Positions 1 to 48,561 of a DNA stretch of 64,000 bases are shown piece by piece. Within the stretch, counting starts at the first letter, position 1. Every line of letters starts with the position of its first letter. Made by a program: the position numbers and the translations under genes. The DNA comes from Candidatus Tritonobacter lacicola (lineage in GTDB: Bacteria; Auribacterota; Tritonobacteria; Tritonobacterales; Tritonobacteraceae). The stretch spans positions 5,682 through 69,681 of the forward strand of contig JAVCDC010000009.1 in assembly GCA_030765135.1 (NCBI GenBank), written 5' to 3'. The notes under the pieces are model-generated. The model worked only from the letters and a program-made list of their open reading frames with translations. It made no database searches and had not been told where the DNA came from.

Positions 1-431
1 CTCCGGCCCTTTTTCTCCCGAGAAGATCTCGACATCGCCCGGACCAGCAGTGCTCACAGCCCGGCTCTCCACACTGATTGCAGTACTGTCCAGCTTTCTC
101 AAATCCTCCCTGGAGAGCTCCTGGCCGCTGGCGAGTTTCTTAACAAGGAAAGAGGCGTCGCTAGAGGAGCTGGGCGAGGGTGTAGGCACCTGGCCGAGGC
201 AAGGGGCCATCGCAAGGAAGAGCACCAAACCAGGGATAACGATAGACCTCATGATCTCCCCTCCTTTCATTCTCCCGATAAATGTCGCATATCCCGGGAG
301 GGGAGTTGTCACTGAAATGTAAAAGGATAGTAAAAAAATCCGGACAGTCTTAAGCGGTATAGAAGAAATACGCTCAGGCACTTACGTGTGGTCCACCGCG
401 CACCTGAGCTGTTACCAACCTGTCCGGAATT

Positions 432-1079
432 TTATTTAACGCCTACGGGCATGAGGTAGAGCGGGACTTCCTCTATGCCGAGGATCTTCTTAACAGCGTC
501 GTCGGAAAAGGCTCCAACGGCAACGGTCCCGAGGCCCAGCGCCGTCGCCTGGAGGTATATGTTCTCTCCCGCGTGCCCCACCTCGATATCGACGTACCGC
601 ACGCCCCTTTTACCGTACACCCTCGTCGTCCTCTCGTAACGCGCTGCAAGAACTATTGTTGCCGGGGCGGCGGCGACCCAACCCTGACCGTACGAGGCTC
701 TTGCCAGTCCGGGGCGTACGTCCCTGCCCGAGACCATCCGGAGGGCGTGCCTTTCAGGGATGTATTGATATACGCCCGGGGCAAGCCCCTCGACCTCTCC
801 GGCAACAAGGTAAGCTGTCAGTGGATAGGTAGCGCCGGCCGATGGTGCGGACCTGAACCCCCTTTTCTTTTCGGTTATACCCTGGGCGGCCCAGAGGAGC
901 TGTGAGACCTGATTGAGGGTCAGCCCGGTTTTTTTATAGGAGCGGATCGACCTCCGGTTTGAGATAGCCTCCTCGACCGACATCACGCCCTTTATCAGGG
1001 GTTCCGGCAACTTTATAAGATCGTTTGCACTGCTCATGCCCGACACCAGGAAAGCGACAACACAAAGTACTGTCTTCAT
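432..1079 (-). CDS. nitroreductase-family protein with N-terminal signal peptide
   Basis: ORF 432..1106. Probable start at the internal Met (MKTVLCVVAFLVSGMSSA, signal-peptide-like). Nitroreductase-fold hallmarks: EEAISNRRSIRSY (FMN-binding R-S-x-R), later ...TYPLTAYLV... and C-terminal LYLMPVG. Confidence 0.7.
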   Translation of the reverse strand: MKTVLCVVAFLVSGMSSANDLIKLPEPLIKGVMSVEEAISNRRSIRSYKKTGLTLNQVSQLLWAAQGITEKKRGFRSAPSAGATYPLTAYLVAGEVEGLAPGVYQYIPERHALRMVSGRDVRPGLARASYGQGWVAAAPATIVLAARYERTTRVYGKRGVRYVDIEVGHAGENIYLQATALGLGTVAVGAFSDDAVKKILGIEEVPLYLMPVGVK

Positions 1080-1153: not shown

Positions 1154-2458
1154 TTACTTTGATTCTTCAGCCTTCCGCTTATTCTCAAGTTTCCGAAGCT
1201 GTTCAAATCTCTGTCTCGCAATCTTATCTGCCCTGCGCTTTTTCTCCAGGATCTCCCGCTCTTTCTCCCTCTCCTCCTCCTCTCTCTTGATTCTATCCAG
1301 ATTCGATTTTTCCGTCTTTATCCGCCGCACCTTGAGCTCCAGTTCCCGCTCGACCAAGCGGATGTCTTCGGAGATGACTGCGTTTATGTATATGACGCTG
1401 GTGTCCAGGTCGCCGGCCTTATAGTAAAGGACTGCTATCCTGCACCGCACCCTCTGGGCCGTGATCAGCGGGGCCGTGCTCAGGGCTTCGTTGTAGTATT
1501 CGATGGCCGCCTTGGGCTTCTTCAGAAAGAACTCGTAGAGTACGGCTAGACGGTACGGCGGGATGTAGCTTTGGAGGAAGTCCTTCTCTGCCTGGAGATA
1601 TATCTTCGCCGCTTTCGAGAAGTCACCGTTTCTCGTAAGCTCCTCTCCTTCGGAGAGATAGTCTTTCAGCTTCCGGGAGATGTCCCTCTCCTGGAAGTAA
1701 TCGCTCGATTCGCGGAGGAGCTCCAGCTCGTAGTTCGCCATCTTCCTGTCCGGTTCTCCCAGATCCTTTGTCCTCACGTATGTTTGCCATAGCTTGATTG
1801 CCTCGTCTGTCTGACCCATCTTCGCATAGCATTCGGCCAGCTCGCGGTGAACGGCGAGGTCGGCCACGTACCGGGCCGAAGACACCGCGTACTCGTAGTG
1901 GCGTGTAGCTTCCTCAAGCCGGGGGAGCGACTTTTCAATGGAGGCGAGCTTCCCGCATACGGATGCCATCCGCAGCTGAACACGGGGGTTATCCGGTTCA
2001 AGGATAAGGGCCTTGTGGAACATCTCCCTGGCTCCCTCGATATCCCCCCGCTCCGACCTTCTGAGCCCCTCGTTAACGTAGTCGGTCACGGACTGTGAGC
2101 CGAGCCTCAGCTTGCCGGCCAATGCCTTATCCTTGACAAGCGGCACACCGGAAAAATCCGAGATCGCCCTGCTGAAGCACTTGTTCGCCTCGGCCTCCCT
2201 GCCAAGCTTCTCAAAACATATCCCCTTCCTGACGAGGGACTCTCCGGCAATTTCGCTTCCCCGAAGGGGGCCGTCCGTTATCTTGCTGTAGGTCCCTATG
2301 GCGTTTTCCAGGTCGCCGAGGCCTATTTCCTGGTAGAGGCCGAGATAGAAGAGGTCGCTCCCTTCCCCCATGCCGTCGCGGGGGACTGCTTCAACCGGCC
2401 GGAAAACCGTCGCGCACGCGATCAGGATCGCCGCGCATAAAGTATATGTCCTGTTCAT
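1154..2458 (-). CDS. TPR-repeat protein, secreted, with K/E-rich coiled-coil C-terminus
   Basis: Signal-peptide-like N-terminus (MNRTYTLCAAILIACATVF). Repeated A/Y/L-rich 34-aa TPR-like units (AxxYY..A......A). C-terminal ~60 aa are extremely K/E/R-rich (EKEREILEKKRRADKIARQRFEQLRKLENKRKAEESK). Confidence 0.65.
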   Translation of the reverse strand: MNRTYTLCAAILIACATVFRPVEAVPRDGMGEGSDLFYLGLYQEIGLGDLENAIGTYSKITDGPLRGSEIAGESLVRKGICFEKLGREAEANKCFSRAISDFSGVPLVKDKALAGKLRLGSQSVTDYVNEGLRRSERGDIEGAREMFHKALILEPDNPRVQLRMASVCGKLASIEKSLPRLEEATRHYEYAVSSARYVADLAVHRELAECYAKMGQTDEAIKLWQTYVRTKDLGEPDRKMANYELELLRESSDYFQERDISRKLKDYLSEGEELTRNGDFSKAAKIYLQAEKDFLQSYIPPYRLAVLYEFFLKKPKAAIEYYNEALSTAPLITAQRVRCRIAVLYYKAGDLDTSVIYINAVISEDIRLVERELELKVRRIKTEKSNLDRIKREEEEREKEREILEKKRRADKIARQRFEQLRKLENKRKAEESK

Positions 2459-3138
2459 CAGCCAACGAATTTATATCCCGCGCCGTAAACAGTGATTATA
2501 TGCGCTGGATCGTTAGGGTCCTTCTCGATTTTCTTCCTCAACTTCAGGATAAGGTTGTCCACGGTTCGTGTCGTTGGATAGACATCGAAGCCCCATATCT
2601 CGTTGAGGAGCTCCTCTCGCGTGACCACGTTGTTCCTGTGCGATATGAGGTGTTTGAGTATCTTGTTCTCGAGGGCGGTCAGCTTCGTCTTTTTCCCCCT
2701 TCTGATAACCTGGTAGCTCTCGAGGTCTATCTTGACATCTCCGAGGGAGTAATGGGTTATTTCGTCGGAGCTGATCCCGCCTCTCCTCAGGAGGGCCCTG
2801 ACCCTGGCGAGCAGCTCGCGCACGCCGAATGGCTTTGTCATATAGTCATCGGCCCCGAGCTCCAGCCCGACCACCTTGTCCACCTCCTCGCCCTTGGCGG
2901 AGAGCATGAGGATGCGGATGGAAGGCATCTTTTCCTTGATCCTGCGGCAAACGTCGTAGCCGCTGAGGTCCGGGAGCATGATGTCCAGTATAACGAGGTC
3001 GGGAACTTTTTCCACAGCCATCCGGACACCCTCCTCGCCGCTCATCGTGCAGATTGCCTCGAACCCCTGGGTCTTGAAAAAATCCTCCAGGCTGCTCAAC
3101 AACTTCTTCTCATCCTCTACGATCAGAATCCGCTCCAT
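2458..3138 (-). CDS. OmpR/PhoB-family response regulator
   Basis: Receiver motifs (ILIVEDE...DLVILDIMLPDLSGYDV...LSAKGEEVDKVVGLELGADDYMTKPF). C-terminal winged-helix (LTALENKILKHLISHRNNVVTREELLNEIWG...VDNLILKLRKKIE...YGAGYKF). Confidence 0.9.
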   Translation of the reverse strand: MERILIVEDEKKLLSSLEDFFKTQGFEAICTMSGEEGVRMAVEKVPDLVILDIMLPDLSGYDVCRRIKEKMPSIRILMLSAKGEEVDKVVGLELGADDYMTKPFGVRELLARVRALLRRGGISSDEITHYSLGDVKIDLESYQVIRRGKKTKLTALENKILKHLISHRNNVVTREELLNEIWGFDVYPTTRTVDNLILKLRKKIEKDPNDPAHIITVYGAGYKFVG

Positions 3139-3150
3139 TTCAATCCTCCA

Positions 3151-5376
3151 TTATATTTCAGGACGCCGGCGTATCGGCAGAACAATAGTGAAAACACTTC
3201 CCTCGTCTCTCCTGCTCTGTACACGAACTTCTCCGCCATGGGCCTCGGCAACGTGCTTGACAATGGCGAGGCCGATACCGGCACCCTTTCCCGAAAGCTT
3301 AGCCGTTTCCTTCGGGCGATAAAACTGATCGAAAATCCTGTCTATATCTTCCGGGGCGATCCCGATCCCCCTGTCCTTCACGCTGATTGTTATGTTGCCT
3401 TCCTTCCGGCGCAGCTCCACCCACACCGTTTTCTCCTCCCGGGAGAATTTGACGGCGTTATCCAGGAGGTTGATCAACGCCTGGCTGATCGCGTCCGCGT
3501 CTATCTCGAGGCTGGGGATGTCCTCGTCCGTCCTGTACACGATGTCGAAGCCTTCAGACCTTACATATTGGCGGAACGCCCTGACGGTATTCAATATAGT
3601 CTCCCCGATGGCTGTGGATCCGAAATTATACGTCTTTCTTGCCGCTCCAATCATGGAGAAGTCCAGGACGTTGTCGATAAGCCTTGAAAGCCTCTCGCTC
3701 TCGGACGCGATGAGCCTGAAATACTCCTGCTCCTTCTCGCGGCTGGAGACCGCGCCCATTTCGAGCATCTCGCCGACGGCCCTGATTGTCGCGAGCGGTG
3801 TCCGCAGCTCGTGGGAGACGCGGGAGACGAAATGGCTCTTGAGCCTGGCAAGCTCGGTATCCCTCTTTATCGAGCGATGGATCATATAAATGCCGAGAAA
3901 AACGACCACTGCAAGAAAAAATATAGAAGTGAGCCGCGTCATCCTTTCTTTACTGGCGACCTCGAAGAGAAGACCCTGTTTTTTATAGGAGATCCTGACT
4001 GCCCATGACGGCAAGGCGGGGGCAAGGGTTTCCGTTTTTTCGTAGCCCGAGCTTGAGGCCGCGTCGCCGGCAGCAGCCACTACATCCCCGGTGGGATCAA
4101 GCACGGTTACATTGACATCGCCTTCGGATTCGACCATCTCCTCCAGGACATCTCTGACCTCTCTACTGAGGGCGGCTTTATCAAGCACAACAGCGATCAC
4201 GATCCGCCTGCCCGTATCGCTCGCCGCCAGGGCACTGCAGAGGAGGAGGACCTCCTCTCCGTCAATGACTATCGATACCGGCCTGAATTCCTGCGCCGAT
4301 TTCCCATCCTCTCCCAGCAGCCTCTGGAAATCAAAGCGGGCGGCTGCCCCGAGGGCCCCCATTTCCTGCGCCGATCTCTTCCTGTCCAGCCACAGCCCCA
4401 GGAGGTCCTCGTACTCCGGCCCGTATCGCCGGAGAAGCCTCTCGGAGCCCAGCAGCTTGTCCATCTCCCCATCTACCATCGAGGCGTAAAAGACGGCTTC
4501 GTGGACGTTGCCGGCAAGCTCTCCGCCGGCAAGAGCTCTCATGATATCCAGAAGGCGCTCGGCCGCGCTGCTCTCGTATCCCAGTATCCTGTCTATAACC
4601 GCCAGCTGGTACAGCGGCAGGAGCTTGAGTGAAAGGCCGCCGCAGAAGACGATGGCTTCCCTTTTTCGCATGATTTCCCTGTAATATTTTTGCGCCTCCC
4701 TGTATTTTCCCATTTTAAAGAAGCACCGCGCGACCGCGTTATCCGCCAGGGCCCTGCACTCTGTCGCTTCGCCGATGTCGAGTGCCCGCTTGTAATCCGC
4801 GACGGCTCCCACCGGGTCGTTTGAGCCGAACTCCTTTCTGCTCCCATCCTTCATCGCCTGGAAGAATTTATCGTTCTCCCTGTCCGACGCGCTCGCTATG
4901 CCGGCAGATGGGACCTTCTCCCCCGCCGTGCCGAATGGGAATAGCGGCAGGAGACGGTGGTCCAGGATAAAAAAGCTCTTGAACACGGGGCACGCTTCAA
5001 CCGCCTCGGAGATCTCTTCCACTATCTCATTCAGGGGCTGGTCCGCGCAGATGCGTTCGTCGAGATCGGTTTCGCAGCCGGCCAGGCCTGCGGTCGCCAT
5101 TTTTTTTAAAGCAAGCCCGAACCTCTCCAGATGGCCTTCGATTTTTTTTCCAATGTCCTCCGTCTCCTTCACCACCACGGATCGTACGGTAAGGTAGGCG
5201 AGGGGTATCGTGGGTAAAAGAACGCAGAGGACGAAGAGGAGGATCAGCCGCCCCCTCCTCAGCCTGCCGAAGATCGATAAGAGTTTTTTCGATATCAACA
5301 GATCAGCTCCATATGCCGGAAATGGCCAGACCGCAGGATGGGCATTTTCCCTCTCGCATACGATTCTTTGAGACAA
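3151..5376 (-). CDS. sensor histidine kinase with large TPR-like extracytoplasmic sensor region
   Basis: TM segment near the N-terminus and a second TM (FFLAVVVFLGIYMI) before the HisKA H-box (SHELRTPLATIRAVGEML). HATPase_c N/G boxes (NLLDNAVKF...DRGIGIAPEDIDRIFDQFYR...GAGIGLAIVKHV). The ORF's annotated 5' end overlaps the next gene by 74 nt, so the true start may be further downstream (see the rejected entry at 5303..5376). Confidence 0.85.
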   Translation of the reverse strand: MSQRIVCERENAHPAVWPFPAYGADLLISKKLLSIFGRLRRGRLILLFVLCVLLPTIPLAYLTVRSVVVKETEDIGKKIEGHLERFGLALKKMATAGLAGCETDLDERICADQPLNEIVEEISEAVEACPVFKSFFILDHRLLPLFPFGTAGEKVPSAGIASASDRENDKFFQAMKDGSRKEFGSNDPVGAVADYKRALDIGEATECRALADNAVARCFFKMGKYREAQKYYREIMRKREAIVFCGGLSLKLLPLYQLAVIDRILGYESSAAERLLDIMRALAGGELAGNVHEAVFYASMVDGEMDKLLGSERLLRRYGPEYEDLLGLWLDRKRSAQEMGALGAAARFDFQRLLGEDGKSAQEFRPVSIVIDGEEVLLLCSALAASDTGRRIVIAVVLDKAALSREVRDVLEEMVESEGDVNVTVLDPTGDVVAAAGDAASSSGYEKTETLAPALPSWAVRISYKKQGLLFEVASKERMTRLTSIFFLAVVVFLGIYMIHRSIKRDTELARLKSHFVSRVSHELRTPLATIRAVGEMLEMGAVSSREKEQEYFRLIASESERLSRLIDNVLDFSMIGAARKTYNFGSTAIGETILNTVRAFRQYVRSEGFDIVYRTDEDIPSLEIDADAISQALINLLDNAVKFSREEKTVWVELRRKEGNITISVKDRGIGIAPEDIDRIFDQFYRPKETAKLSGKGAGIGLAIVKHVAEAHGGEVRVQSRRDEGSVFTIVLPIRRRPEI

Positions 5377-6427
5377 CGAAGTGAACCCTGTCGATCAGGA
5401 GAGAGCCGCACATCGGGCAGAAGGTGCTGTTGTATTTATGTCCCGGCACGTTGCCTATATAAACGTAATTGATCCCCTCATCAATGGCGATCTGCCTGGC
5501 ATCCTCCAGGACGCTGACGGGGGTGGGCGGGATATTCTTGAGCCGGTAGGCAGGATAAAACCTGTTGAAATGGAGGGGAACGTCCTCCCCCAGCTCGGCC
5601 TTTATCCATCGGCACATCTTTTTTATTTCCGCCATATCGTCATTGAGTGTGGGAATAACCAGGTTGACTATTTCGAGGTGGCGTCCGCTGCGCTTTATCG
5701 CCTCCAGGGTCTTCATGACAGGACCGAGAGAGGCGGAGGATACGGAATCGTAAAATTTTTCGGTGAACCCCTTGAGGTCCACGGTCACGGCGTCCATGTA
5801 ATCCAGAATCTCGACGAGGGGAACAGCAGAGATGGAGCCGTTCGTGTGAAAAACAGCCTTCAGGCCGCGCTCCTTGCCGAGGCGGGCAGTCTCCCTCATG
5901 TATTCATAGAAAACCGTCGGCTCGCTGTACGTGAAGGAGAGCGTCGGGCAGCCCCGTCTTTTCGCGCGCGAAACGATATCTGCCGGTTCGCAATCGTATG
6001 AATAAGTATCCTCCACCCGGCTCTGCGAAATCTGCCAGTTCTGGCAAAACCTGCAGCGGAAGTTGCAGCCGGCGGCCGCGGTACAGAATATGTCCGTGCC
6101 GGGCAGCATGTGAAATACCGGCTCCTTTTCTATCGGATCGATCTGGACGGAGCATATCCTGTTGGCGGTAAGCGCGTACAGGGTCCCGCCCATATTTCTT
6201 CTGTTCCTGCAAAACCCCTCCCCTCCGTCGGGTATAACACACCGGCGAAAGCATAGCCCGCACTCAACCGGGCCGGAGCCGAGCTTCCTGTAGTGGGATG
6301 CTTCGACGTGCCCGGCCCCGGTGGGCCTGACAAGTCTGACCCCGGCCCCTGCGGCCAGCGCCGCACAGAAGCCCCTCTTCAGGGCCTCGCGCCTGGATAT
6401 CCGATACCCGCCCCATTCATCACACAT
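5303..6427 (-). CDS. radical SAM enzyme, PFL-activase-like (AmmeMemoRadiSam-type signature) with twin-arginine-like N-terminus
   Basis: CNFRCRFCQNWQISQ (CxxxCxxC plus the QNxxIS signature of the PFL-AE-like / AmmeMemoRadiSam subgroup). Additional N-terminal CGLCFRRC and C-terminal CPMCG...CPSCG cysteine pairs. N-terminus SRREALKRGFCAALAAGAGV resembles a Tat signal. Confidence 0.8.
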   Translation of the reverse strand: MCDEWGGYRISRREALKRGFCAALAAGAGVRLVRPTGAGHVEASHYRKLGSGPVECGLCFRRCVIPDGGEGFCRNRRNMGGTLYALTANRICSVQIDPIEKEPVFHMLPGTDIFCTAAAGCNFRCRFCQNWQISQSRVEDTYSYDCEPADIVSRAKRRGCPTLSFTYSEPTVFYEYMRETARLGKERGLKAVFHTNGSISAVPLVEILDYMDAVTVDLKGFTEKFYDSVSSASLGPVMKTLEAIKRSGRHLEIVNLVIPTLNDDMAEIKKMCRWIKAELGEDVPLHFNRFYPAYRLKNIPPTPVSVLEDARQIAIDEGINYVYIGNVPGHKYNSTFCPMCGSLLIDRVHFVVSKNRMREGKCPSCGLAISGIWS

Positions 6428-6492: not shown

Positions 6493-6705
6493 TCATAGTA
6501 CCCAGAGGATAAAACAAATCAGAAGGGCGCATGCCACAAGGAAAAACCACACACCCTTATGGAAACCGGTCCTGAGGTTCAGGGAATTGCCGCAGTATAT
6601 ACAGAGAAGGCTCTCTGCCGGCGCTTCCATCCCGCAGTGGGGACACTTCACCAGATCGCGGCTCTCGCCCATGCGAAACGTCTCCTGGATTTCCGGGGTT
6701 GGCAA
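6493..6705 (-). CDS. small zinc-ribbon membrane protein
   Basis: CPHCG...CIYCG double CxxC zinc ribbon followed by one hydrophobic helix (WFFLVACALLICFILWVL). Confidence 0.45.
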   Translation of the reverse strand: MPTPEIQETFRMGESRDLVKCPHCGMEAPAESLLCIYCGNSLNLRTGFHKGVWFFLVACALLICFILWVL

Positions 6706-6708
6706 CTG

Positions 6709-7176
6709 TCAGTGGAACTTGCCGGCGAACCGGGCGATCATGTTTGCCTCTTCATCGCTCGAGGCCATAAAATCGAACTTCGTCCTGTAGGATCCTTCGC
6801 TCTCCGGCTTCCGCACCTCGGCAATCCTGCCGTAGCAAATAAACCTCTCCGAGTCCTCGGAAAGAACAATCTCGAGCTCCACGTGGGTTCCGACGGGAAG
6901 CTCGCGGTCATATTCGAAGAGGAGCCCGCAGACCTTGACTCCCCCCTTCTTCCTGTGTTCCTTCATCTTGACATAGACGACGTAATCACTTTCGCGCCGA
7001 GAACAGAGGCGGCAGGTAATCCTTGACCAGGGAGGGGCCCTGAGGTATTTCAGGTATTTTATTTCCTTGAGTTTTCTCTCGTCCATTCGGCGCTTATCTC
7101 CCGGAGTATTTCCGCTTTTAGCAGCATCCCCATATCTTGTCGTGAAAAGTATAACAACCCGCGGAATGGTACGCAA
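6709..7176 (-). CDS. PilZ-like domain protein (degenerate motifs)
   Basis: RRMDER matches the PilZ RRxxxR motif and the size fits, but the canonical DxSxGG motif is absent (only ...VCGLLFEY...). Weak call. The 1-nt spacing to the upstream zinc-ribbon gene suggests a gene pair. Confidence 0.35.
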   Translation of the reverse strand: MRTIPRVVILFTTRYGDAAKSGNTPGDKRRMDERKLKEIKYLKYLRAPPWSRITCRLCSRRESDYVVYVKMKEHRKKGGVKVCGLLFEYDRELPVGTHVELEIVLSEDSERFICYGRIAEVRKPESEGSYRTKFDFMASSDEEANMIARFAGKFH

Positions 7177-9657: not shown

Positions 9658-10347
9658 TTATCTGGAAACTATTTTAGGAGGGCGCCCGGTCCTCGGTCTT
9701 GGACGCCCCTGCCTAATACCCATTGCCATTAAAAAACTCTCGCTTCCTAATACGTCAGTGTTGCTTTTAAAATATTTTTCTTCCGCAATCGCCTTTTCCT
9801 TATCCAGCAACCACTCCCTGTAAGCTTTCCGTCTTTCCTCGACGGTAGTTCCCATTGCCGTCCATTCGGGATCGGGAGTAACGAGCGGATCGTTTTCACC
9901 CAATACGTAAAACCGAGCGCTCGACCATGGCCATTCCCAGGGGACGGTCACCAGGCCGGCTCTCACTGGGTTTCTCTCCACATAACGAGCGCATGCAAGA
10001 AGATAAGAAGATTGCTCTATGGCTTGGCTTTTAAATCTGCTTTGGAACAATCGCCCTGCCGTATTATATCGCTTATGGTACCTCCTCGCGTAAACTTGCT
10101 GCAGGCCTCCAATAGCCTTAGAGAGACTCCAAAAATCTCTCAACTTTAAAATTAAGTGAAAGTGATTATGCATAACACACCAATGATAAATGGAAAATTC
10201 AAAGAGTTGCGCGTATCTGGCTACTATTTTCAGGAAGGAATTGACATCCCTTTGATCATGGAAGATGTCATGCTTGAGAATGCCGCGGTTTATAATATGG
10301 TAAACCAATGAGTCGCTGAGTTTATATTTTCTTGCCGTTCGAGGCAT
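9658..10347 (-). CDS. IS200/IS605-like HuH Y1 transposase homolog (RAYT-like, 229 aa)
   Basis: YHIINRG...HWCVMHNHFHLILKL (HuH motif) and downstream catalytic-Tyr region (YLLACARYVERNPVRAGLV). Longer than classical IS200 TnpA, as seen in REP-associated or domesticated Y1 transposases. Confidence 0.75.
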   Translation of the reverse strand: MPRTARKYKLSDSLVYHIINRGILKHDIFHDQRDVNSFLKIVARYAQLFEFSIYHWCVMHNHFHLILKLRDFWSLSKAIGGLQQVYARRYHKRYNTAGRLFQSRFKSQAIEQSSYLLACARYVERNPVRAGLVTVPWEWPWSSARFYVLGENDPLVTPDPEWTAMGTTVEERRKAYREWLLDKEKAIAEEKYFKSNTDVLGSESFLMAMGIRQGRPRPRTGRPPKIVSR

Positions 10348-10756: not shown

Positions 10757-11141
10757 GGGGGCGAAAAGGTTTCGACTGATCTAGGAAACCGGTAGCGGCA
10801 TGCAGAGGTTGAGAGGAGGCCTCTTCCCGAAAGGGACCCTGAGCTTGTCGAAGGGTAAAACACCTCTCACACCAAGTAACTGCAGACGAGCAGTTCGCAC
10901 TAGCTGCTTAAGCAGCTACGTCCACGGGTCCGGCCTGCGGGGCCCGGATGGACGACCGGAGCAGGCTGGCCTCGAACCCGAGCCACCGGGGCAAGAGGCG
11001 AGATCGTCTTCGTGGAGGCTAGTTCTCCGTAGGTCCTGTCCGCCGGAGTTGCGGAGAGCGAATGAAAAAGACGGACTAAGCATGTAGAGGCTTCCGGTGA
11101 CATATTTCAGGACGCGGGTTCGATTCCCGCCGCCTCCACCA
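10757..11141 (+). ncRNA. ssrA: tmRNA (SsrA)
   Basis: 5' GGGGGCGAAAAGGUUUCGAC and 3' tRNA-like end GGACGCGGGTTCGATTCCCGCCGCCTCCACCA. Internal tag reading frame GCA GAC GAG CAG TTC GCA CTA GCT GCT TAA encodes ADEQFALAA* (canonical ...ALAA tail). smpB lies immediately downstream on the opposite strand. Confidence 0.9.
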
Positions 11142-11191: not shown

Positions 11192-11662
11192 TTATTTATT
11201 GCGCAGGGCCCTTTCAATGTCCCGCTCCATCTCCCTCTTCTGTATGTTATCGCGACGGTCGTAGAGTTTCTTGCCCCTGGCTACCGCCATCTCGACCTTA
11301 GCCCGTCCCCTCTTGAAGTACATCGACAGCGGCACAAGTGTGTACCCCTTTCGTGAGATCAAGCCGAAGAGCCGTTTTATCTCCCTCTTGTGGAGAAGGA
11401 GCTTCCGCTTTCTATACGGGTCCAGGTTAAAAACGCCGCCCTGTTCATACGGGCTGATGTGCATGTTGTGGAGAAAGACTTCGCCGCTCTCGACCACGCC
11501 GTAGCTGTCCCTCAGGTTGCCCTTTCCCTGGCGCAGTGACTTCACCTCGCTTCCCACGAGCTCTATTCCGGCCTCGTAGGTCTCAAAGATGTGATATTCC
11601 CACCGCGCTCTCCTGTTTGCGACGATGACTTTCCTTCCCGCATCGCCAGTCGCCGGGCACAT
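11192..11662 (-). CDS. smpB: SsrA-binding protein SmpB
   Basis: ORF 11192..11719; probable start at the internal Met (MCPATGD..., giving ~156 aa). Conserved SmpB stretches: IANRRARWEYHI, GIELVGSEVKSLR, GVFNLDPYRKRKLLLHKREI, and C-terminal K/R tail. Confidence 0.9.
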   Translation of the reverse strand: MCPATGDAGRKVIVANRRARWEYHIFETYEAGIELVGSEVKSLRQGKGNLRDSYGVVESGEVFLHNMHISPYEQGGVFNLDPYRKRKLLLHKREIKRLFGLISRKGYTLVPLSMYFKRGRAKVEMAVARGKKLYDRRDNIQKREMERDIERALRNK

Positions 11663-23877: not shown

Positions 23878-24719
23878 ATCTCTATCGAGGCGTGCCTGTA
23901 GACGTGACAGCATATATTCAGCGCCACGGGAAGACCCGCGATATGGGTCGGATAGGTGTTGACGGCCACGCTCAAGGCCGTCACCCTGCCCCCCAACCCC
24001 TGCGGCCCTATACCGAGCTTGTTGATCTCTTTCAGTAAATCGTTCTCCATCCTTCGCGTGTTCTCGTCCCCGCTTGGTTTCCCCAGGGGTCTTGTCAGCG
24101 CCTCCTTGGACATGAGAGCCGCCTTTTCGAAAGTGCCCCCCACCCCTATCCCCACAACGATGGGGGGGCATGGGTTCGCCCCGGCATTCTTGATCGTATC
24201 GATGACGAAGCGCTTGATGCCCTCGTACCCCTCCGTGGGTTTGAGCATCCTGATCGCGCTCATGTTCTCGCTCCCGAAGCCCTTTGGAACCACCGTCACC
24301 CTCACCTTATCGCCGGGCACGACACTGAAATGGATGACCGCCGGGGTGTTGTCCCCGGTGTTCATTCTCCTGAGCGGATCCGCGACCACGGACTTCCTCA
24401 AATAACCCTGCCGGTAACCCCTGCGGACGCCTTCGTTTACGGCCTCGCTCACATCCCCCCCGGCGAGGTGAACGTCCTGTCCCACATCGAGGAAGACCAC
24501 CGTCATGCCCGTATCCTGGCAGATCGGGAGGTTCTCGTTCCTGGCCACCTCGAGATTTTCAAGCAAGACGCGGAATATTTCGCGCGCCGTGCCCGGCTCC
24601 TCCTCCGCCATGCCCTTTTTAAGGGCCTTTATCAGATCGTCCGGGGCGAGGACGTTCGTCTCCATGCACATCCTGGCAACGCCGTCTTCTATGCTCCGCA
24701 CGTCAACATCTCGTACCAT
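23874..24719 (-). CDS. fumarate hydratase class I, alpha (N-terminal, Fe-S hydro-lyase alpha) subunit
   Basis: ...LPICQDTGMTVVFLDVGQDVHL... with Cys ligands (CQDTG) and ...GIGVGGTFEKAA..., typical of the class I fumarase/tartrate dehydratase alpha subunit. Confidence 0.85.
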   Translation of the reverse strand: MVRDVDVRSIEDGVARMCMETNVLAPDDLIKALKKGMAEEEPGTAREIFRVLLENLEVARNENLPICQDTGMTVVFLDVGQDVHLAGGDVSEAVNEGVRRGYRQGYLRKSVVADPLRRMNTGDNTPAVIHFSVVPGDKVRVTVVPKGFGSENMSAIRMLKPTEGYEGIKRFVIDTIKNAGANPCPPIVVGIGVGGTFEKAALMSKEALTRPLGKPSGDENTRRMENDLLKEINKLGIGPQGLGGRVTALSVAVNTYPTHIAGLPVALNICCHVYRHASIEI

Positions 24720-24764
24720 CGGTACGCACCCCTCGTTTACCGGGATTGTCGCAACCTCCCGGAC

Positions 24765-25928
24765 CTATTTCAGTACGGGGGACGGTTTTGTCGGCTCGAC
24801 GAGGAGCTTGACCTCAAGTTCCCCGTCCCCCGGCCGCCCCTGGATAAACTCTTCCTCGATCTTATCCTGCAGCGCCTCAAACAGGCCCACCGCCTCATCG
24901 TAAGCCCTGTCGAGCTTCCTCTTGTCGGCCCTGAGCGCGGCGGTCTCTTTCATCTCGCGCTTGCTTTTCTCTGCCAGCTCTTCGGCTTCCTCAATATCAT
25001 CATGGAGCCTCTCGATAAGATCCGAGACCTCGATCAGTTCATCCTCGACATCCCGGTAAAGGGGATTCAGCGAGCGGGTCTCCTGTCTCTGCGATCTCAC
25101 CTCCATGGCCTCCAGATTAAGCCTCAATTCGCCGATCTGTCTTTCCAGCTTCCTCGTCTTATTGCCCTCGCCGTACTTCGATCTGACTTCCTCCAGCCTT
25201 TCCTCTTTCGACGCGATCGTTCTTTTAAGCTTCATGACCCGGGGGCCGTATTGCACCACTGTTGATGTAACGATGTACTCTGGAATATTGCCAAGCTTTT
25301 TCTTGATAGCCCGTCTCTTCGCCCCGGCCTCCTCCATCTCCATCCTGTGCTTCTCGATCTTGATCTTTGTTCCGGCTACAGCAGCGGCCATTCTTTCTTC
25401 GGAGAGAAACTGTTCATGCCCGATAACCAAATCGTCGAGCTGCCTCTCAGCATCCTCTACCCTGTCCCGGGCCTCATCGAGCCGGGCCCTGAGAAAAGCG
25501 AGCCTCTCCGAGTCCCCCGTTTCCACGCCTTCCGATACAATCCGATCCGTCAGCGCCGACATCACGCGGCGGCACACGACCGGGTCATCTAGATCAAGCC
25601 ATATCCTGAACCTGTCATCCTCTATTATCTCTGCATCGACAGAGCGCCTGATCCTTCCTCGAAGTTCAGCCTTCTCGTCATTCATTCCCTTCACTGCGCT
25701 CCTCAACACGGACCAGTCGCTCAATCGTGCCCTCAGGTTCTTCAGCACTACCTCCCGCTCTTCAGCCGGCCGGCAATTCAGTCTCTCCACCAGGATAATC
25801 GCCTCCGAGCGATAGAGCGGTTTCTTCCGGGATTGTCCGCCCGTGGATGAGGAAAAGACAACAAGGATTATAACTGCACAGATCCCCGGTGCCGATGATA
25901 AGAATCCGCTGGCGGCAGCTTTTTTCAT
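24765..25928 (-). CDS. signal-anchored coiled-coil protein of unknown function
   Basis: N-terminal TM (ICAVIILVVFSS), then long heptad-like charged segments (ERQLDDLVIGHEQFLSEERMAAAVAGTKIKIEKHRMEMEEAGAKRRAIKKKL...). Confidence 0.5.
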   Translation of the reverse strand: MKKAAASGFLSSAPGICAVIILVVFSSSTGGQSRKKPLYRSEAIILVERLNCRPAEEREVVLKNLRARLSDWSVLRSAVKGMNDEKAELRGRIRRSVDAEIIEDDRFRIWLDLDDPVVCRRVMSALTDRIVSEGVETGDSERLAFLRARLDEARDRVEDAERQLDDLVIGHEQFLSEERMAAAVAGTKIKIEKHRMEMEEAGAKRRAIKKKLGNIPEYIVTSTVVQYGPRVMKLKRTIASKEERLEEVRSKYGEGNKTRKLERQIGELRLNLEAMEVRSQRQETRSLNPLYRDVEDELIEVSDLIERLHDDIEEAEELAEKSKREMKETAALRADKRKLDRAYDEAVGLFEALQDKIEEEFIQGRPGDGELEVKLLVEPTKPSPVLK

Positions 25929-26010
25929 GCCGGGCTGGTCGATACGAATACCTTGACTCTCTCCGGTTCGCCCGCTTGTGACAATAAACCAGTCACCGTA
26001 TCTCTCTTTG

Positions 26011-26083
26011 CGCGCCCAGCAGGACTCGAACCTGCAACCACCGGATTAGAAATCCGGTGCTCTATCCGTTGAGCTATGGGCGC
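26011..26083 (-). tRNA. tRNA-Arg (TCT)
   Basis: Reverse complement reads GCGCCCATAGCTCAACGGATAGAGCACCGGATTTCTAATCCGGTGGTTGCAGGTTCGAGTCCTGCTGGGCGCG. Anticodon stem CCGGA/TCCGG, loop TTTCTAA, anticodon TCT. Confidence 0.85.
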
Positions 26084-26138
26084 ATCCGGTTGGCCGGGCG
26101 GCTCGACCCACCCCCCTTTATAGACAGGAAAAGAGGCG

Positions 26139-26582
26139 TTATAGTTTAAGTAGCTTGCTAAGCTCCTGGTGCAGCCTCTTTATAGCCTTCTTGTTGGACC
26201 TCCATTCTTCAAGGTGAGCCATGACATACTCTTTGCCCGTACACAGGCTCTCCTGCTTGCCGAGAAGGTGTGATATCTGTTTGAGCAACAGAAGCGCCCT
26301 TCCGTATTCAGGGGGACATCCATGGAGATTTGCGAGCGCGTTATGCGCCTCCTGCCGTCGGTTGATCATATTGTCCACCAACTCCCCTGTCAGGGTATCC
26401 TGTAGAAGGCTGAGCTGGTATCGGCTGATCGAGCCCTCCCACGAAAAGACAACGTAGCGGGCTTGCTTGAACTGCTTTCTCCAGTTTTGCTTCACTTCCT
26501 GGGATTCGCAACGATGCCCAGCAGCAAGAACAGCCAGAAGCGGAACGAGCAAGAAAACTGGTGTTTTTGCCTTCACCATCAT
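26139..26582 (-). CDS. small secreted protein, paralog A (shared motifs WRKxxKxAR, GCPxxY, C-terminal LLKL)
   Basis: Signal peptide (MMVKAKTPVFLLVPLLAVLAAG). Shares an ordered set of motifs with the adjacent ORF (NWRKQFKQARY / QWRKKIKRARH; HGCPPEYGRALL / GGCPDDYKRDCE; identical ...LLKL end). Confidence 0.55.
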   Translation of the reverse strand: MMVKAKTPVFLLVPLLAVLAAGHRCESQEVKQNWRKQFKQARYVVFSWEGSISRYQLSLLQDTLTGELVDNMINRRQEAHNALANLHGCPPEYGRALLLLKQISHLLGKQESLCTGKEYVMAHLEEWRSNKKAIKRLHQELSKLLKL

Positions 26583-26612
26583 CGCGGATCCCCTCGGTTC
26601 ATCATTTTTCGG

Positions 26613-27050
26613 TTAAAGCTTAAGCAACCGCTCCAGTTCTTCAAACAACCCATCCACCTTTTTCTTGAGCTTCTTCTGTTCCTCGAGCTGATTGAAGGCC
26701 ACCTGCCTGTTCTCCGCCATGAGCTCCATCTTCCTCAGGATCTCGTGGATTTCGTTAATTATTTCGCAATCTCTTTTATAATCGTCGGGACATCCGCCGA
26801 TCTCGTTAATCGACTGGCGGGCGGCTATACTGCCGTTTATCAACCTGTCTCTTTCACTGGCATCCGGCCCCCCCCGAAAAAGCACCGCGTTGTAATAATT
26901 ATTCACGGCCGTGTTGAAAAGCAGCATGTGATGGCGCGCTCTCTTGATCTTCTTCCTCCACTGCATATCCCGAGCGCGTCCATCCGGCGTAAAGGCAAGC
27001 AAGGCCGACGAACAGATTATAAATAGAATTATTTTCCTGACACCGTGCAT
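26613..27050 (-). CDS. small secreted protein, paralog B of the upstream gene
   Basis: Signal peptide (MHGVRKIILFIICSSALLA). Same length class and motif order as paralog A. Confidence 0.55.
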   Translation of the reverse strand: MHGVRKIILFIICSSALLAFTPDGRARDMQWRKKIKRARHHMLLFNTAVNNYYNAVLFRGGPDASERDRLINGSIAARQSINEIGGCPDDYKRDCEIINEIHEILRKMELMAENRQVAFNQLEEQKKLKKKVDGLFEELERLLKL

Positions 27051-27325
27051 GATCCCAGCCCTTTTGAGAGTATTGTATCAACCGGTTGTGGATATTTACA
27101 ACTTATTGTTCTCCGTCTCTTCCAGTTCAGCCGGACGGCTCCGCATCTTCGCCAGTTCCTCGACGAGCCGCTTCTTTGTCTTCTCCTTGTCCCTCATCCT
27201 TCGATTGCCTCAAGAGCGGAAGGGATTTAAAAAGTACCGGAAACCATATTGATGGTCGCAATTACTGAACGCCACTCGAACTATCTTTGGCATAATTCAT
27301 TTTTGAATTTCAAAAATAGTTGATT

Positions 27326-27826
27326 TTATTTTGAGTCAATATAGTGGATTGCTTCGTCTATCACAGAAATATCCTTTATCTTAGAAGAAAAAATCTCACC
27401 TTTGATTTTTTCTATCTCGTCTATGCTTTCAACAATAAAATCTGAAAAGGTAAAGATGAACGGGTGAATCCAGTCCTCAACTAATTTTCCATGAAAGACC
27501 ACATTGGGACGCCTATGATGAGTATCTTTAGGAAGAATGGAAATAACCGGTTTATTAAAATACTTTGCAATAACGATTTCTTGGGCGGTTCCTACCCCAA
27601 GTATTTCTTCGGCGTTAACTATCACTAATGAACTATCTTTTATGTGTCTACAATCTTGGCCAACAACTGCTAAAAAATCACCTTCATCTAATTCTTTATG
27701 GTAGGGTTCGATGAAATCAGCTTCAAAAAATTTCTGCAGAAGTTGCTTGTATTTACTTCTCCAGTCATTAAATATTTTTGCTTCCGCGTCTCCTTTTGGG
27801 ACACTGCCTGCCAAATAAATTTTCAT
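27326..27826 (-). CDS. nucleoside 2-deoxyribosyltransferase-like (NDT/flavodoxin-like fold) protein
   Basis: N-terminal MKIYLAGS, and GVGTAQEIVIAKYFNKPVISI matching the NDT family core (D/S-GTxxExGxA...KPV). The gene and its flanks are conspicuously AT-rich compared with the rest of the window. Confidence 0.6.
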   Translation of the reverse strand: MKIYLAGSVPKGDAEAKIFNDWRSKYKQLLQKFFEADFIEPYHKELDEGDFLAVVGQDCRHIKDSSLVIVNAEEILGVGTAQEIVIAKYFNKPVISILPKDTHHRRPNVVFHGKLVEDWIHPFIFTFSDFIVESIDEIEKIKGEIFSSKIKDISVIDEAIHYIDSK

Positions 27827-27937
27827 AGTTTTTCTATTTTAACAAATCATCCCAAGGCAGTGCCGGATGCGGCTAAATCTGCCTTCGGCAGATTTGACGC
27901 AGAACCGCCCACCTTTCCCAACTTAAGTTCAAGAGTT

Positions 27938-28015
27938 GGTCGGGGCGCCGGGATTTGAACCCGGGGCCTCCTGCTCCCAAAGCAGGCGCGCTAAACCGGA
28001 CTGCGCCACGCCCCG
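27938..28015 (-). tRNA. tRNA-Pro (TGG)
   Basis: Reverse complement reads CGGGGCGTGGCGCAGTCCGGTTTAGCGCGCCTGCTTTGGGAGCAGGAGGCCCCGGGTTCAAATCCCGGCGCCCCGACCA. Anticodon loop TTTGGGA gives anticodon TGG; CCA is encoded. Confidence 0.8.
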
Positions 28016-28157
28016 ATTTTCTCCATACCATTAGGTTCTGCAATACTTTTTACTAATGAAACCGCCTTATTGCCCCCTCTTCACTTCGTTCATCGGGATC
28101 TAAGAATTTCATGGTATTTAGCTTCGCTACGCTCGCTAAATACCTGAACTTCTAAGA

Positions 28158-28191
28158 CGGACTGCGCCACGCCCCGATTTTCTCCATACCA
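28158..28191. repeat. 34-bp direct repeat of the tRNA-Pro 5' end plus upstream flank (second copy; first copy 27997..28030)
   Basis: CGGACTGCGCCACGCCCCGATTTTCTCCATACCA occurs identically at 27997..28030 and 28158..28191. Copy 1 spans the first ~19 nt of the tRNA (minus strand) plus 15 nt upstream. The ~127-bp spacer is AT-rich. Confidence 0.85.
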
Positions 28192-28229
28192 AGCCATATT
28201 ACCAATCGAGAGGAGCCCTTGAAAGCGCT

Positions 28230-28979: not shown

Positions 28980-28991
28980 TTAATCCATGCT

Positions 28992-48558: not shown

Positions 48559-48561
48559 AAT

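Follow-up and report, generated by a model that had tools for sequence, protein, structure and literature searches.

A radical SAM enzyme of the AmmeMemoRadiSam family with a predicted Tat export signal in Candidatus Tritonobacter lacicola

A 64-kb stretch of DNA from Candidatus Tritonobacter lacicola (hereafter the window) encodes a radical SAM (rSAM) enzyme of the AmmeMemoRadiSam family (TIGR04337), which falls into a large and apparently undescribed branch of this family whose members carry predicted export signals. The proposal that the enzyme is catalytically intact, is exported by the Tat system, is supplied with electrons by flavoproteins and acts in the cell envelope is, taken as a whole and judged from sequence, one to which we give even chances. 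The export signals and the membrane electron-transfer wiring found in this branch suggest radical SAM chemistry outside the cytoplasm; as far as we could find, none has been shown before, and rSAM chemistry is known to us only from the cytoplasm. If true, this would to our knowledge be without precedent; SAM would have to cross the membrane by a route not yet recognised, and the long-enigmatic AMMECR1 and Memo proteins would be expected to have a substrate in the envelope.

Family assignment, cysteine sites and predicted fold

The rSAM protein is identical to NCBI entry MDP8246625.1 from the Candidatus Tritonobacter lacicola MAG, which is already annotated as an AmmeMemoRadiSam rSAM enzyme; the host is an anaerobe that originates from an anoxic water layer. 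The gene and its features are:

5303..6427, minus strand: rSAM enzyme, TIGR04337 family, exported branch; 374 aa (HMM, AF2 model, family tree)
6299..6427, minus strand: predicted Tat signal peptide, residues 1-43, outside the TIGR04337 profile (homologue conservation)
6209..6262, minus strand: N-terminal four-Cys site C56-x2-C59-x3-C63-x9-C73
6044..6067, minus strand: radical SAM cluster motif C121-x3-C125-x2-C128 (CNFRCRFC)
5333..5419, minus strand: C-terminal four-Cys site C337-x2-C340 ... C362-x2-C365

TIGR04337, a known but uncharacterised family, matched the protein with 338.9 bits (E 2.7e-101; residues 45-373 on profile positions 3-333 of 349) against a curated whole-protein cutoff of 220 bits, and PF04055 matched with 68.1 bits. 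The cluster motif lies within CNFRCRFCQNWQIS (residues 121-134). In the alignment, C121, C125, C128 and both four-Cys groups are invariant in 83 homologues and are conserved in the cytoplasmic as well as the exported branch. The N-terminal group is probably an auxiliary metal or Fe-S site, and the C-terminal group appears to be either zinc-ribbon-like or a further Fe-S site. The family assignment and the additional terminal cysteine groups, both read from the sequence in the original prediction, are thus borne out.

The AF2 model (pLDDT 91.9) has pyruvate formate-lyase (PFL) activase as its nearest solved fold (3cb8/3c8f; E 7e-13; TM-score of approximately 0.8 of the activase), and the closest sequence relatives outside TIGR04337 are glycyl-radical activases. 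The score above the family cutoff, the retention of the three cysteine sites in both branches and the confident model with its PFL-activase-like core together argue for membership in the family and for predicted intact catalysis.

Predicted Tat signal

From the stop that lies five codons upstream as far as residue 79, the reading frame offers a single start codon, the ATG at 6427 (preceded by GAGGCAGAGG); translation must therefore include the 44-residue N-terminal extension. Its n-region contains SRREALK (residues 11-17, nt 6377-6397) at the beginning of the Tat-like sequence SRREALKRGFCAALAAGAG (residues 11-29); a short, weakly hydrophobic predicted h-region (GFCAALAAGAGV; mean hydropathy 1.95) and a basic predicted c-region (RLVRPTGAGHVEA) follow, and a possible V-E-A cleavage site lies directly before the conserved domain. 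On direct reading this is the pattern S/T-R-R-x-F-L-K, h-region and basic c-region with small-x-small site, with A at the consensus F position. The positive charges N-terminal to the hydrophobic segment predict an N-in, C-out orientation. TIGR01409 was the sole HMM family with a match in this region (13.6 bits, E 0.067, below the cutoff of 16.7), and PF10518 did not match the N-terminus; the AF2 model shows an isolated helix at residues 12-27 and, after it, a linker modelled with low confidence.

The Tat-like reading of this N-terminus, already put forward in the original prediction, gains its support from the homologues, notwithstanding the sub-threshold score of the protein itself. An RR motif stands at the same place before the h-region in 72 of 117 homologue N-termini (2.9 in shuffled sequences) and a lipobox is present in 26 (1.1 in shuffles); TIGR01409 matches 45 of the 117 (best E 1.1e-5), far above any other family, and the second most frequent family is another TAT-target model. 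The strict [ST]RRx motif was found in 62 of 120 homologues, and an N-terminal extension of at least 40 aa in 110 of 120. When the rSAM N-termini of 90 loci were classified, 56 were Tat-like, 26 were signal- or anchor-like, seven had no signal and one had no anchoring motif. The Sec-type or plain hydrophobic anchors lacking RR, which make up about a quarter of the homologues, count against Tat export of a folded enzyme, since such proteins would cross the membrane unfolded; we know of no Fe-S assembly outside the cytoplasm. Among the genes annotated in the 64-kb window there is neither a TatA nor a TatC gene.

Neighbouring genes and related loci

The rSAM gene is followed by four genes of the same orientation and is preceded by one small gene:

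432..1079, minus strand: secreted SagB/ThcOx-type nitroreductase-family flavoprotein, 215 aa, signal peptide MKTVLCVVAFLVSGMSSA (TIGR03605 135.1 bits, PF00881 108.2 bits)
1154..2458, minus strand: TPR protein, 434 aa, signal/lipobox-like N-terminus (AILIAC), charged C-terminal tail (TPR families; lineage-specific)
2458..3138, minus strand: OmpR-type response regulator, 226 aa (Response_reg and Trans_reg_C; lineage-specific)
3151..5298, minus strand: sensor histidine kinase, 715 aa, two TM helices around a large external domain (HisKA and HATPase_c; lineage-specific)
6493..6672, minus strand: small zinc-ribbon protein, 59 aa, C-terminal TM helix, directly upstream of the rSAM gene (PF13240 26.9 bits)

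The run of co-oriented, nearly contiguous genes described in the original prediction is real, and the histidine kinase gene begins 4 nt past the rSAM stop codon. The linkage to the rSAM gene is conserved for the nitroreductase and not for the regulatory and TPR genes. In the closest relative (locus L001; 94% DNA identity), which also has the small zinc-ribbon gene, synteny stops at the rSAM stop codon; genes for the histidine kinase, the response regulator and the TPR protein are absent downstream, and a nitroreductase homologue is located approximately 250 nt downstream of the rSAM gene. The genes for the histidine kinase, the response regulator and the TPR protein would represent a lineage-specific insertion with, at most, a role in local regulation. 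The pairing of rSAM and nitroreductase recurs in at least three other phyla, and the nitroreductase is the only neighbour in the window whose linkage is conserved across phyla: five related loci (L012, L014, L017, L018 and L027) encode nitroreductases of the same protein cluster at distances of up to approximately 2.4 kb from the rSAM, with the two genes side by side in three of them; all of these nitroreductases have a signal or lipobox, and in L018 and L027 NapH-like and DsbD_2 genes are part of the gene cluster as well.

No AMMECR1 or Memo gene was found in the 64-kb window or in approximately 5 kb beyond its start, either in precomputed Pfam calls, which covered nearly all genes, or by HMM search of six-frame ORFs of at least 50 aa, even at E<=10; such genes may sit elsewhere in the genome. 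Their absence had been predicted correctly, but it does not set this locus apart as had been supposed: 62 of 84 related loci (74%) have no Memo or AMMECR1 gene within 5 kb, which makes this the usual state in the exported branch. Some relatives have the rSAM adjacent or fused to proteins that pass TIGR04335 and TIGR04336. Where a Memo or AMMECR1 gene is nearby (22 of 84), the N-terminus of the adjacent Memo(-AMMECR1) protein resembles a signal or lipobox in 20 of 22 rSAM-partner pairs with confirmed domains.

The commonest neighbour across the related loci, at 33 of 84, is S, a membrane protein of 14 helices that contains a spermidine-synthase-like domain; the gene for S is absent from the window. 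Its SpeE-like domain is predicted by the positive-inside rule to be external in both halves; the topology from single-sequence analysis was inconsistent. No genes for FMN_bind (PF04205), ApbE, NapH-like PF12801 or DsbD-type proteins were found in the 64-kb window.

Domain fusions, topology and phylogeny

Fusion proteins of relatives combine the rSAM domain with FMN_bind, Fer4_5 (NapH-like) and DsbD_2 modules (P0131-P0136, P0148, P0158) and, behind a signal, also with beta-propeller and CBM_11 domains. The flavinylation motif D-x-x-[ST]-G-A-T is intact in all five of the fusions P0132, P0135, P0136, P0148 and P0158, and the fused PF12801 modules carry CX3CP motifs. By hydropathy and positive-inside estimates, there are no TM helices between FMN_bind and rSAM in P0148 and P0158, and six TM helices past the FMN_bind domain in P0132, P0135 and P0136. 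The rSAM domain is thereby predicted to lie on the FMN_bind side, i.e. outside; a point against the proposal is that, in the latter three, polytopic fusions, the last helix is preceded by KK, KR or RK only. Single polypeptides with the arrangements signal-Memo-rSAM (L052), anchor-rSAM-Memo-AMMECR1 (P0134) and signal-Memo-AMMECR1-rSAM (P0144) also occur.

The family tree comprises a cytoplasmic and an exported branch, with the window gene in the latter. Representatives of the exported type are all located in one part of the tree (10 state changes; 33.9 expected at random).

Proposed function and alternative explanations

For the enzyme in the window, we envisage folding and Fe-S/metal loading at the three observed cysteine sites in the cytoplasm, followed by Tat export directed by SRREALK, with cleavage probably just before the conserved domain, as the sequence and its conservation in homologues suggest. 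Once in the periplasm or on the external side of the cytoplasmic membrane, the enzyme would receive electrons from flavoproteins: in the window locus, the co-operonic secreted nitroreductase-family protein is the putative supplier (it may instead be a pathway enzyme), and in other lineages the fused or adjacent FMN_bind, NapH-like and DsbD_2 modules could serve this role, given their predicted topology. The substrate of the SAM-radical chemistry would be located in the envelope, and exported Memo-AMMECR1 proteins would take part in some organisms. The S protein, with its external spermidine-synthase-like domain of SAM/dcSAM-binding fold, is a candidate source of SAM outside. It counts against the proposal that we know of no SAM pool, SAM exporter or low-potential reductant outside the bacterial cytoplasm. 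The periplasm-directed redox module suspected in the original prediction is supported by the conserved RR signal, the export signals of the partners and the fusions to extracytoplasmic electron-transfer modules. A wider version, which we hold tentatively and with some doubt, is that of a whole extracytoplasmic SAM-dependent radical pathway in many anaerobic phyla, with Tat-exported rSAM, Sec-exported Memo-AMMECR1, nitroreductases, flavinylated NapH-/DsbD-like conduits, and S supplying or using SAM or decarboxylated SAM.

The SAM-supply problem would disappear if the SAM-dependent chemistry took place in the cytoplasm, with the enzyme itself, a bound partner or a bound substrate as its target, and was followed by Tat passage as a carrier/hitchhiker complex or as a single-turnover reagent with SAM bound; no external SAM pool would then be necessary. 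This we consider unlikely, although the Tat-type signal is the dominant class among the homologues, export of folded, cofactor-loaded proteins and complexes by Tat is documented (PMC10924467, available part), and cytoplasmic maturation of exported periplasmic effectors by rSAM enzymes has precedents such as HXS (PMC13128918, available part). The fusions to NapH-like, DsbD_2 and FMN_bind modules, the last with intact flavinylation motifs, imply a continuing supply of electrons outside, the Memo-AMMECR1 partners have Sec or lipoprotein signals of their own and would not hitchhike, and the S protein has an apparently external SAM-fold domain. Rather improbable as well is an ordinary cytoplasmic AmmeMemoRadiSam enzyme with partners encoded elsewhere, for which the extension would serve to bind a chaperone or to tether the enzyme to the membrane on its cytoplasmic side, or would be a remnant without function. 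It would agree with the sub-cutoff TIGR01409 score, the short and weakly hydrophobic h-region, the catalytic residues identical to those of the cytoplasmic branch and the general knowledge of rSAM chemistry as cytoplasmic. However, the RR motif, h-region and lipobox/AxA sites are conserved far above shuffle expectation, the partners have classical signal peptides, the fusion topology puts the rSAM domain on the FMN_bind side, the charges before the hydrophobic segment predict N-in, C-out, and the exported state is phylogenetically coherent.

Two further explanations take their cue from single features of the locus. The SagB family domain of the nitroreductase, the small ORF directly upstream of the rSAM gene and the general frequency of RiPP maturation among rSAM enzymes would suit a RiPP cluster under two-component control, in which the rSAM and the SagB-type dehydrogenase modify a small precursor such as the 59-aa zinc-ribbon protein; this is very unlikely, as the annotated neighbourhood contains no YcaO/cyclodehydratase (none within 10 kb either side of the rSAM locus), SPASM domain, RiPP recognition element, peptidase or exporter, the best RiPP-maturase match of the rSAM reaches 24 bits against a cutoff of 625 bits, the dehydrogenase is itself secreted, and the partners conserved elsewhere are S, Memo-AMMECR1 and electron-transfer modules. 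Similarly, the fold and the weak HMM similarity to activase families might indicate a PFL-activase-like activase for a glycyl radical enzyme encoded elsewhere, which we regard as most improbable. All activase scores are far below their cutoffs (TIGR02493, 54.3 against 231.75 bits; TIGR02494, 40.6 against 174.35 bits), no glycyl radical enzyme was found in the window or among the recurrent neighbours of related loci, and the additional N- and C-terminal Cys domains are specific to the TIGR04337 family; with such scores and no glycyl radical enzyme partner, membership in an activase family is effectively excluded.

Comparison with known systems

The exported branch shares with the AmmeMemoRadiSam system (rSAM, TIGR04337; AMMECR1-type A protein, TIGR04335; Memo-type B protein, TIGR04336) the score above the family cutoff and the three cysteine sites of the cytoplasmic members. 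The exported branch differs in its Tat, signal or anchor N-termini on the rSAM and Sec or lipoprotein signals on Memo-AMMECR1, in having S rather than AMMECR1/Memo as its commonest neighbour, and in being fused to or clustered with FMN_bind, NapH-like and DsbD_2 modules and secreted nitroreductases. A role in RNA base modification, predicted earlier (PMC2034487), fits poorly with an envelope location. With PFL activase and other glycyl-radical activases, the window enzyme has the partial TIM-barrel core with CX3CX2C motif in common, but it adds the N- and C-terminal four-Cys modules and the predicted export signal, and is without a glycyl radical partner.

Flavinylation-associated extracytosolic systems (NosR/PceC/NapH-like, DsbD-like; Meheust et al. 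2021, PMC8238504) contain the same modules that are fused to the rSAM domain of the relatives, and the route by which electrons from pools in the membrane or cytosol reach external redox enzymes is proposed to run through these modules; radical SAM, Memo and AMMECR1 are not mentioned in that survey. Those systems have a respiratory reductase or oxidase as their terminal module, the fusions a radical SAM domain. The window has only the secreted nitroreductase and none of these modules; its rSAM is thus a relative of enzymes wired in this way, encoded at a locus that is not itself a system of this kind.

Tat-exported Fe-S proteins (Rieske proteins, hydrogenase small subunits, NapG/NrfC-type ferredoxins) have the same twin-arginine signal with weakly hydrophobic h-region and basic c-region, and require folding and Fe-S loading before export. 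They are, unlike the window enzyme, not SAM-dependent, and need only electrons outside and no cytoplasmic metabolite such as SAM. In the HXS antiphage system, radical SAM chemistry is likewise linked to a periplasmic end point; there the effector HxsA was found in the periplasmic fraction, and the available part of the report (PMC13128918) does not suggest export of the rSAM enzyme, whereas in the window the signal is on the rSAM itself.

Radical SAM gene and family assignment

The gene under study was located by reading of the open reading frames:

5303–6427, minus strand: radical SAM enzyme, 374 codons

The start codon, an ATG at 6427, lies just behind a Shine-Dalgarno-like stretch (GAGGCAGAGG) and is the sole in-frame ATG, GTG or TTG from a stop codon five codons upstream to residue 79. 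Alternative starts that would remove the signal were ruled out (none in frame), and with a single possible start codon, residues 1–44, which are outside the family profile, must be translated. The predicted protein matches NCBIfam TIGR04337 ('AmmeMemoRadiSam system radical SAM enzyme') over residues 45–373 with 338.9 bits (cutoff, 220 bits), and PF04055 with 68.1 bits. A reading as glycyl-radical activase was rejected, as the protein falls far short of the cutoffs of the activase models; a RiPP reading of the locus was weighed and also rejected. The identical protein sequence is encoded on 22 public contigs and equals NCBI MDP8246625.1, which already carries the TIGR04337 family name; the bare identification is not new, and the protein is an annotated member of a known family. 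The PDB sequence search with this protein gave PFL activase as the only match (E 3.6e-4), and structure comparison also returned PFL activase as the nearest solved fold (E 7e-13, TM-score approximately 0.8 of the activase); no solved structure was found for any member of the family.

The host, Candidatus Tritonobacter lacicola, is a metagenome-assembled genome of Ca. Auribacterota (PVC group) and an inferred anaerobe whose abundance in Ace Lake, Antarctica, is highest in the anoxic zone; the paper on this genome contains no text relevant to the radical SAM locus.

Predicted N-terminal signal

Residues 11–17 of the enzyme read S-R-R-E-A-L-K and are followed by a weakly hydrophobic stretch (GFCAALAAGAGV), then by RLVRPTGAGHVEA, which ends one residue ahead of the start of the conserved domain; any cleavage site is putative. 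Only one family, the curated Tat model TIGR01409, matches this segment, at a sub-threshold 13.6 bits (cutoff, 16.7 bits), and a Pfam search of the N-terminus gave no match. In the AlphaFold model (mean pLDDT 91.9), residues 12–27 form a detached helix that is followed by a low-confidence linker, and the globular enzyme begins at approximately residue 41. Taken alone, the N-terminus is suggestive at best of a Tat signal, and the case for such a signal is made by the N-termini of the homologues.

Among the 120 closest clusters, at least 40 residues precede the first conserved cysteine motif in 110, and a strict [ST]RRx[hydrophobic]2 motif is present in 62 (a looser RR motif in 77). For 117 homologue N-terminal fragments, TIGR01409 was the most recurrent family by far (45 fragments), and the second most recurrent is also a TAT-target model (nine members). 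The RR motif stands directly ahead of a hydrophobic stretch in 72 of these 117 homologues, compared with 2.9 in composition-preserving shuffles; a lipobox after the hydrophobic stretch was found in 26 (1.1 in shuffles), and both features together in 23. When the classification was anchored on the first CxxCxxxC motif, the N-termini of 90 homologues comprised 56 Tat-like, 26 signal- or anchor-like and seven of neither type, and one without the anchoring motif. The original prediction of an AmmeMemoRadiSam-type enzyme with an unusual Tat-like signal is therefore sound, for the family by its score and for the signal by its conservation among homologues.

Gene neighbourhood

Genes on the same strand encode, in this order, a 59-aa zinc-ribbon/transmembrane protein, the radical SAM enzyme, a histidine kinase (start 4 nt past the radical SAM stop), an OmpR-type response regulator, a lipoprotein-like TPR protein, a secreted-type nitroreductase (432–1079; with signal) and four coiled-coil proteins. 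No convincing terminator was found by scanning this gene run; promoter and terminator scans of the locus stayed at background level, and an Rfam search near the operon detected no regulatory RNA.

In the locus of the closest relative (L001), 94% DNA identity to the window extends over 4.6 kb and ends at the radical SAM stop codon. A nitroreductase homologue with a hydrophobic N-terminus follows approximately 250 nt downstream of this stop (47% identity over the 55 residues visible), and no histidine kinase, response regulator or TPR genes are present in between; generic two-component genes near the radical SAM gene were not enriched in other loci. Hence, of the neighbours originally proposed to form a module with the enzyme, the nitroreductase is retained, and the linkage to the two-component system and TPR protein is not conserved. 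The conserved unit of the window is the radical SAM enzyme plus the secreted nitroreductase, told apart here from a lineage-specific, incidental kinase/regulator/TPR block.

That no AMMECR1 or Memo gene is in view was likewise borne out. [quoted passage not shown] The four genes downstream of the nitroreductase, suited by size, were considered as divergent AMMECR1/Memo genes and rejected; they are coiled-coil-like and gave no AMMECR1/Memo match (E<=1):

Window 1–252 and L006:16176–19085 (one of the radical SAM loci), mostly beyond the window start: four unassigned same-strand genes of 215, 199, 254 and 287 aa, with weak coiled-coil-type matches only

Two genes upstream of the radical SAM gene, a 125-aa protein (6709–7086, minus strand) has a sub-threshold PilZ match (18.6 versus 22.5 bits) and is possibly a c-di-GMP-binding protein.

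Partners in related loci

Scanning reference genomes yielded 80 loci that encode radical SAM relatives of 44–59% identity, from Desulfobacterota, Planctomycetota (including Brocadia and Kuenenia), Chloroflexota, Spirochaetota, Elusimicrobia, Poribacteria, Cloacimonadota, Atribacterota and others. For 84 non-redundant loci, ORFs were called and clustered, followed by HMM searches, and neighbours within 5 kb of the radical SAM gene were counted.

Neighbours within 5 kb of the radical SAM gene (84 non-redundant loci)
S, a membrane protein of approximately 775 aa: 33 loci
Memo and/or AMMECR1: 22 loci
Nitroreductase of the same cluster as window 432–1079: 6 loci
None of these three: 43 loci

By these counts, a locally 'partner-less' radical SAM gene is the norm in this group. 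Every nitroreductase adjacent to a radical SAM gene carries a signal peptide or lipobox, and so does the adjacent Memo(-AMMECR1) protein in 20 of the 22 pairs; the two signal-less cases are both stand-alone genes for Memo or AMMECR1 at a distance of 1–2 kb. The neighbours of approximately 505 aa are signal-peptide-Memo-AMMECR1 fusions (in locus L087, TIGR04336 with 290 bits and TIGR04335 with 193 bits), and locus L052 encodes a signal-Memo-radical SAM fusion of 650 aa. In five loci of Syntrophorhabdus type (L048, L055, L076, L077, L087), the next gene after those for S, radical SAM and Memo-AMMECR1 encodes a Peptidase_M29 aminopeptidase (approximately 400 aa; PF02073, 358.8 bits).

The commonest neighbour of exported-type radical SAM genes is S, which is absent from the window (e.g. 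L018:10963–13296, L002:11164–13524, L004:11177–13543). Of the 42 loci flanked on each side by 5 kb or more of sequence, 19 have S within 5 kb; the two genes often overlap or are separated by 0–23 bp, in several orientations. Its central domain is a Spermine_synth domain (PF01564, 89.5 bits) with transmembrane helices on both sides, and S matches NF037959 ('fused MFS/spermidine synthase') with 40.3 bits (cutoff, 40). Single-sequence hydropathy gave 5–8 helices before the soluble domain with inconsistent charge bias; alignment-averaged hydropathy of 30 S proteins gave a coherent pattern of 7 + 7 helices, and one weak peak within the Rossmann domain probably reflects a beta-strand. Alternate-loop K+R counts are 11.2 versus 3.4 in the N-terminal and 9.9 versus 1.0 in the C-terminal block; from the helix pattern and this bias (a simple positive-inside estimate), both termini are predicted inside and the spermidine-synthase-like domain outside.

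Two Spirochaetales loci (L018, L027), with radical SAM enzymes among the closest relatives of the window protein (58% identity), carry the parts of the fusion proteins described below as separate genes of one cluster, in the order radical SAM-1 (signal), S, nitroreductase (signal), radical SAM-2 (anchor), FMN_bind/NapH-like protein and DsbD_2; no Memo or AMMECR1 gene was found within 10 kb in either. Two paralogous radical SAM genes flank S in several exported-type clusters (L018:13922–15151 and its L027 equivalent, L014, L017; in L014 and L017 the second is on the opposite strand), an arrangement that points to a heteromer or to two separate radical steps.

Exported-type and cytoplasmic-type branches

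Searched exhaustively, the 50%-identity representatives yielded 7,747 relatives, of which 1,378 reached E<=1e-30. A simple neighbour-joining tree of 124 complete domains (no support values) was read by leaf order and parsimony counts. All 40 exported-type representatives and the window protein are within the first 51 leaves, and the remaining 73 leaves consist entirely of cytoplasmic-type proteins of approximately 335 aa or signal-less radical SAM-AMMECR1-Memo triple fusions; parsimony required 10 state changes, compared with a mean of 33.9 (minimum 27) for shuffled states. A pure exported clade was not recovered by walking up the midpoint-rooted tree. Each branch retains the radical SAM triad and both four-cysteine sites; the exported one is thus not a degenerate form. 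The triple fusions are single polypeptides of approximately 910–1150 aa that cluster in the cytoplasmic branch (P0169, P0196, P0206, P0211, P0222, P0237, P0246, P0247, P0251, P0263, P0270).

Domains preceding the radical SAM domain in representative fusion proteins
DsbD_2 membrane domain (exported branch): P0131, P0133, P0135
FMN_bind (exported branch): P0132, P0135, P0136, P0148, P0158
NapH-like Fer4_5 module (exported branch): P0132, P0135, P0136
Signal and beta-propeller (exported branch): P0123
Signal and CBM_11 (exported branch): P0127

The flavinylation motif D-x-x-[ST]-G-A-T is intact in all five fused FMN_bind domains. P0148 and P0158 have one N-terminal helix and none between FMN_bind and the radical SAM domain. 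The three NapH-like fusions share a core of FMN_bind, three helices, CX3CP, two helices, CX3CP, one helix and radical SAM; with six helices after FMN_bind, the radical SAM domain is back on the FMN_bind side. Radical SAM, Memo and AMMECR1 all go unmentioned in a survey of flavinylation (Meheust et al. 2021, PMC8238504).

Location of the radical SAM chemistry

The most economical reading of these sequence features is that the window enzyme would be exported by Tat, folded and metal-loaded, and would be active at the membrane's outer face, where flavoproteins would donate the electrons; electrons may flow to it from the nitroreductase, and we infer that a putative reaction on a putative substrate would take place there. 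What speaks for this reading is the family assignment together with a large and phylogenetically coherent branch with conserved Tat signals, signal-bearing partners and repeated fusion to outward electron-transfer modules. Radical SAM catalysis depends on an oxygen-labile Fe-S cluster, a low-potential electron and SAM, all of which are regarded as cytoplasmic resources. The export reading faces three real difficulties: no source of SAM is known outside the cytoplasm, the Sec-type or plain anchors found in about a quarter of the homologues would export an unfolded apo-protein, and the Tat score of the window enzyme itself is sub-threshold. A serious rival is that the chemistry is completed in the cytoplasm before export. 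If the enzymes really work outside, the periplasm would have to be reached by SAM or one of its derivatives, and the rules on where radical SAM chemistry can happen need revision.

No exported radical SAM enzyme and no exported AmmeMemoRadiSam variant was found in the literature, where a prior mention in work on Memo contexts is possible; Burroughs et al., in 2019 (J Biol Chem 294:10211), reportedly describe extended gene contexts of Memo with a link to the modification of nucleotide bases and isoprenoids. The family-level pattern seen here, in which an exported branch has a partner set of its own, appears to be undescribed. AMMECR1 and Memo, which are conserved from archaea to humans, are linked to disease, and to our knowledge neither has a known biochemical function; bacterial counterparts whose location and electron-supply partners are defined would offer a handle for experiments.

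Other features of the window

An IS200-type Y1 transposase gene (9658–10347, minus strand) adjoins the tmRNA gene (10757–11141; tag ADEQFALAA) and smpB, called at 11192–11662 (minus strand) with a longer ORF reaching 11719. The GC content drops to 0.47 at 26–28 kb (approximately 0.57 elsewhere in the window), between tRNA-Arg (26010–26083) and tRNA-Pro (27937–28015), and approximately 24700–29000 contains five genes without any Pfam match; this stretch of 24.7–29 kb may be a horizontally acquired islet. Neighbouring AIRC (PF00731) and Ni_insertion (PF01969) genes at approximately 47341–49320 (minus strand) resemble LarB/LarC of the nickel-pincer cofactor pathway, and two Na/Pi-cotransporter-PhoU gene sets are located beside them.
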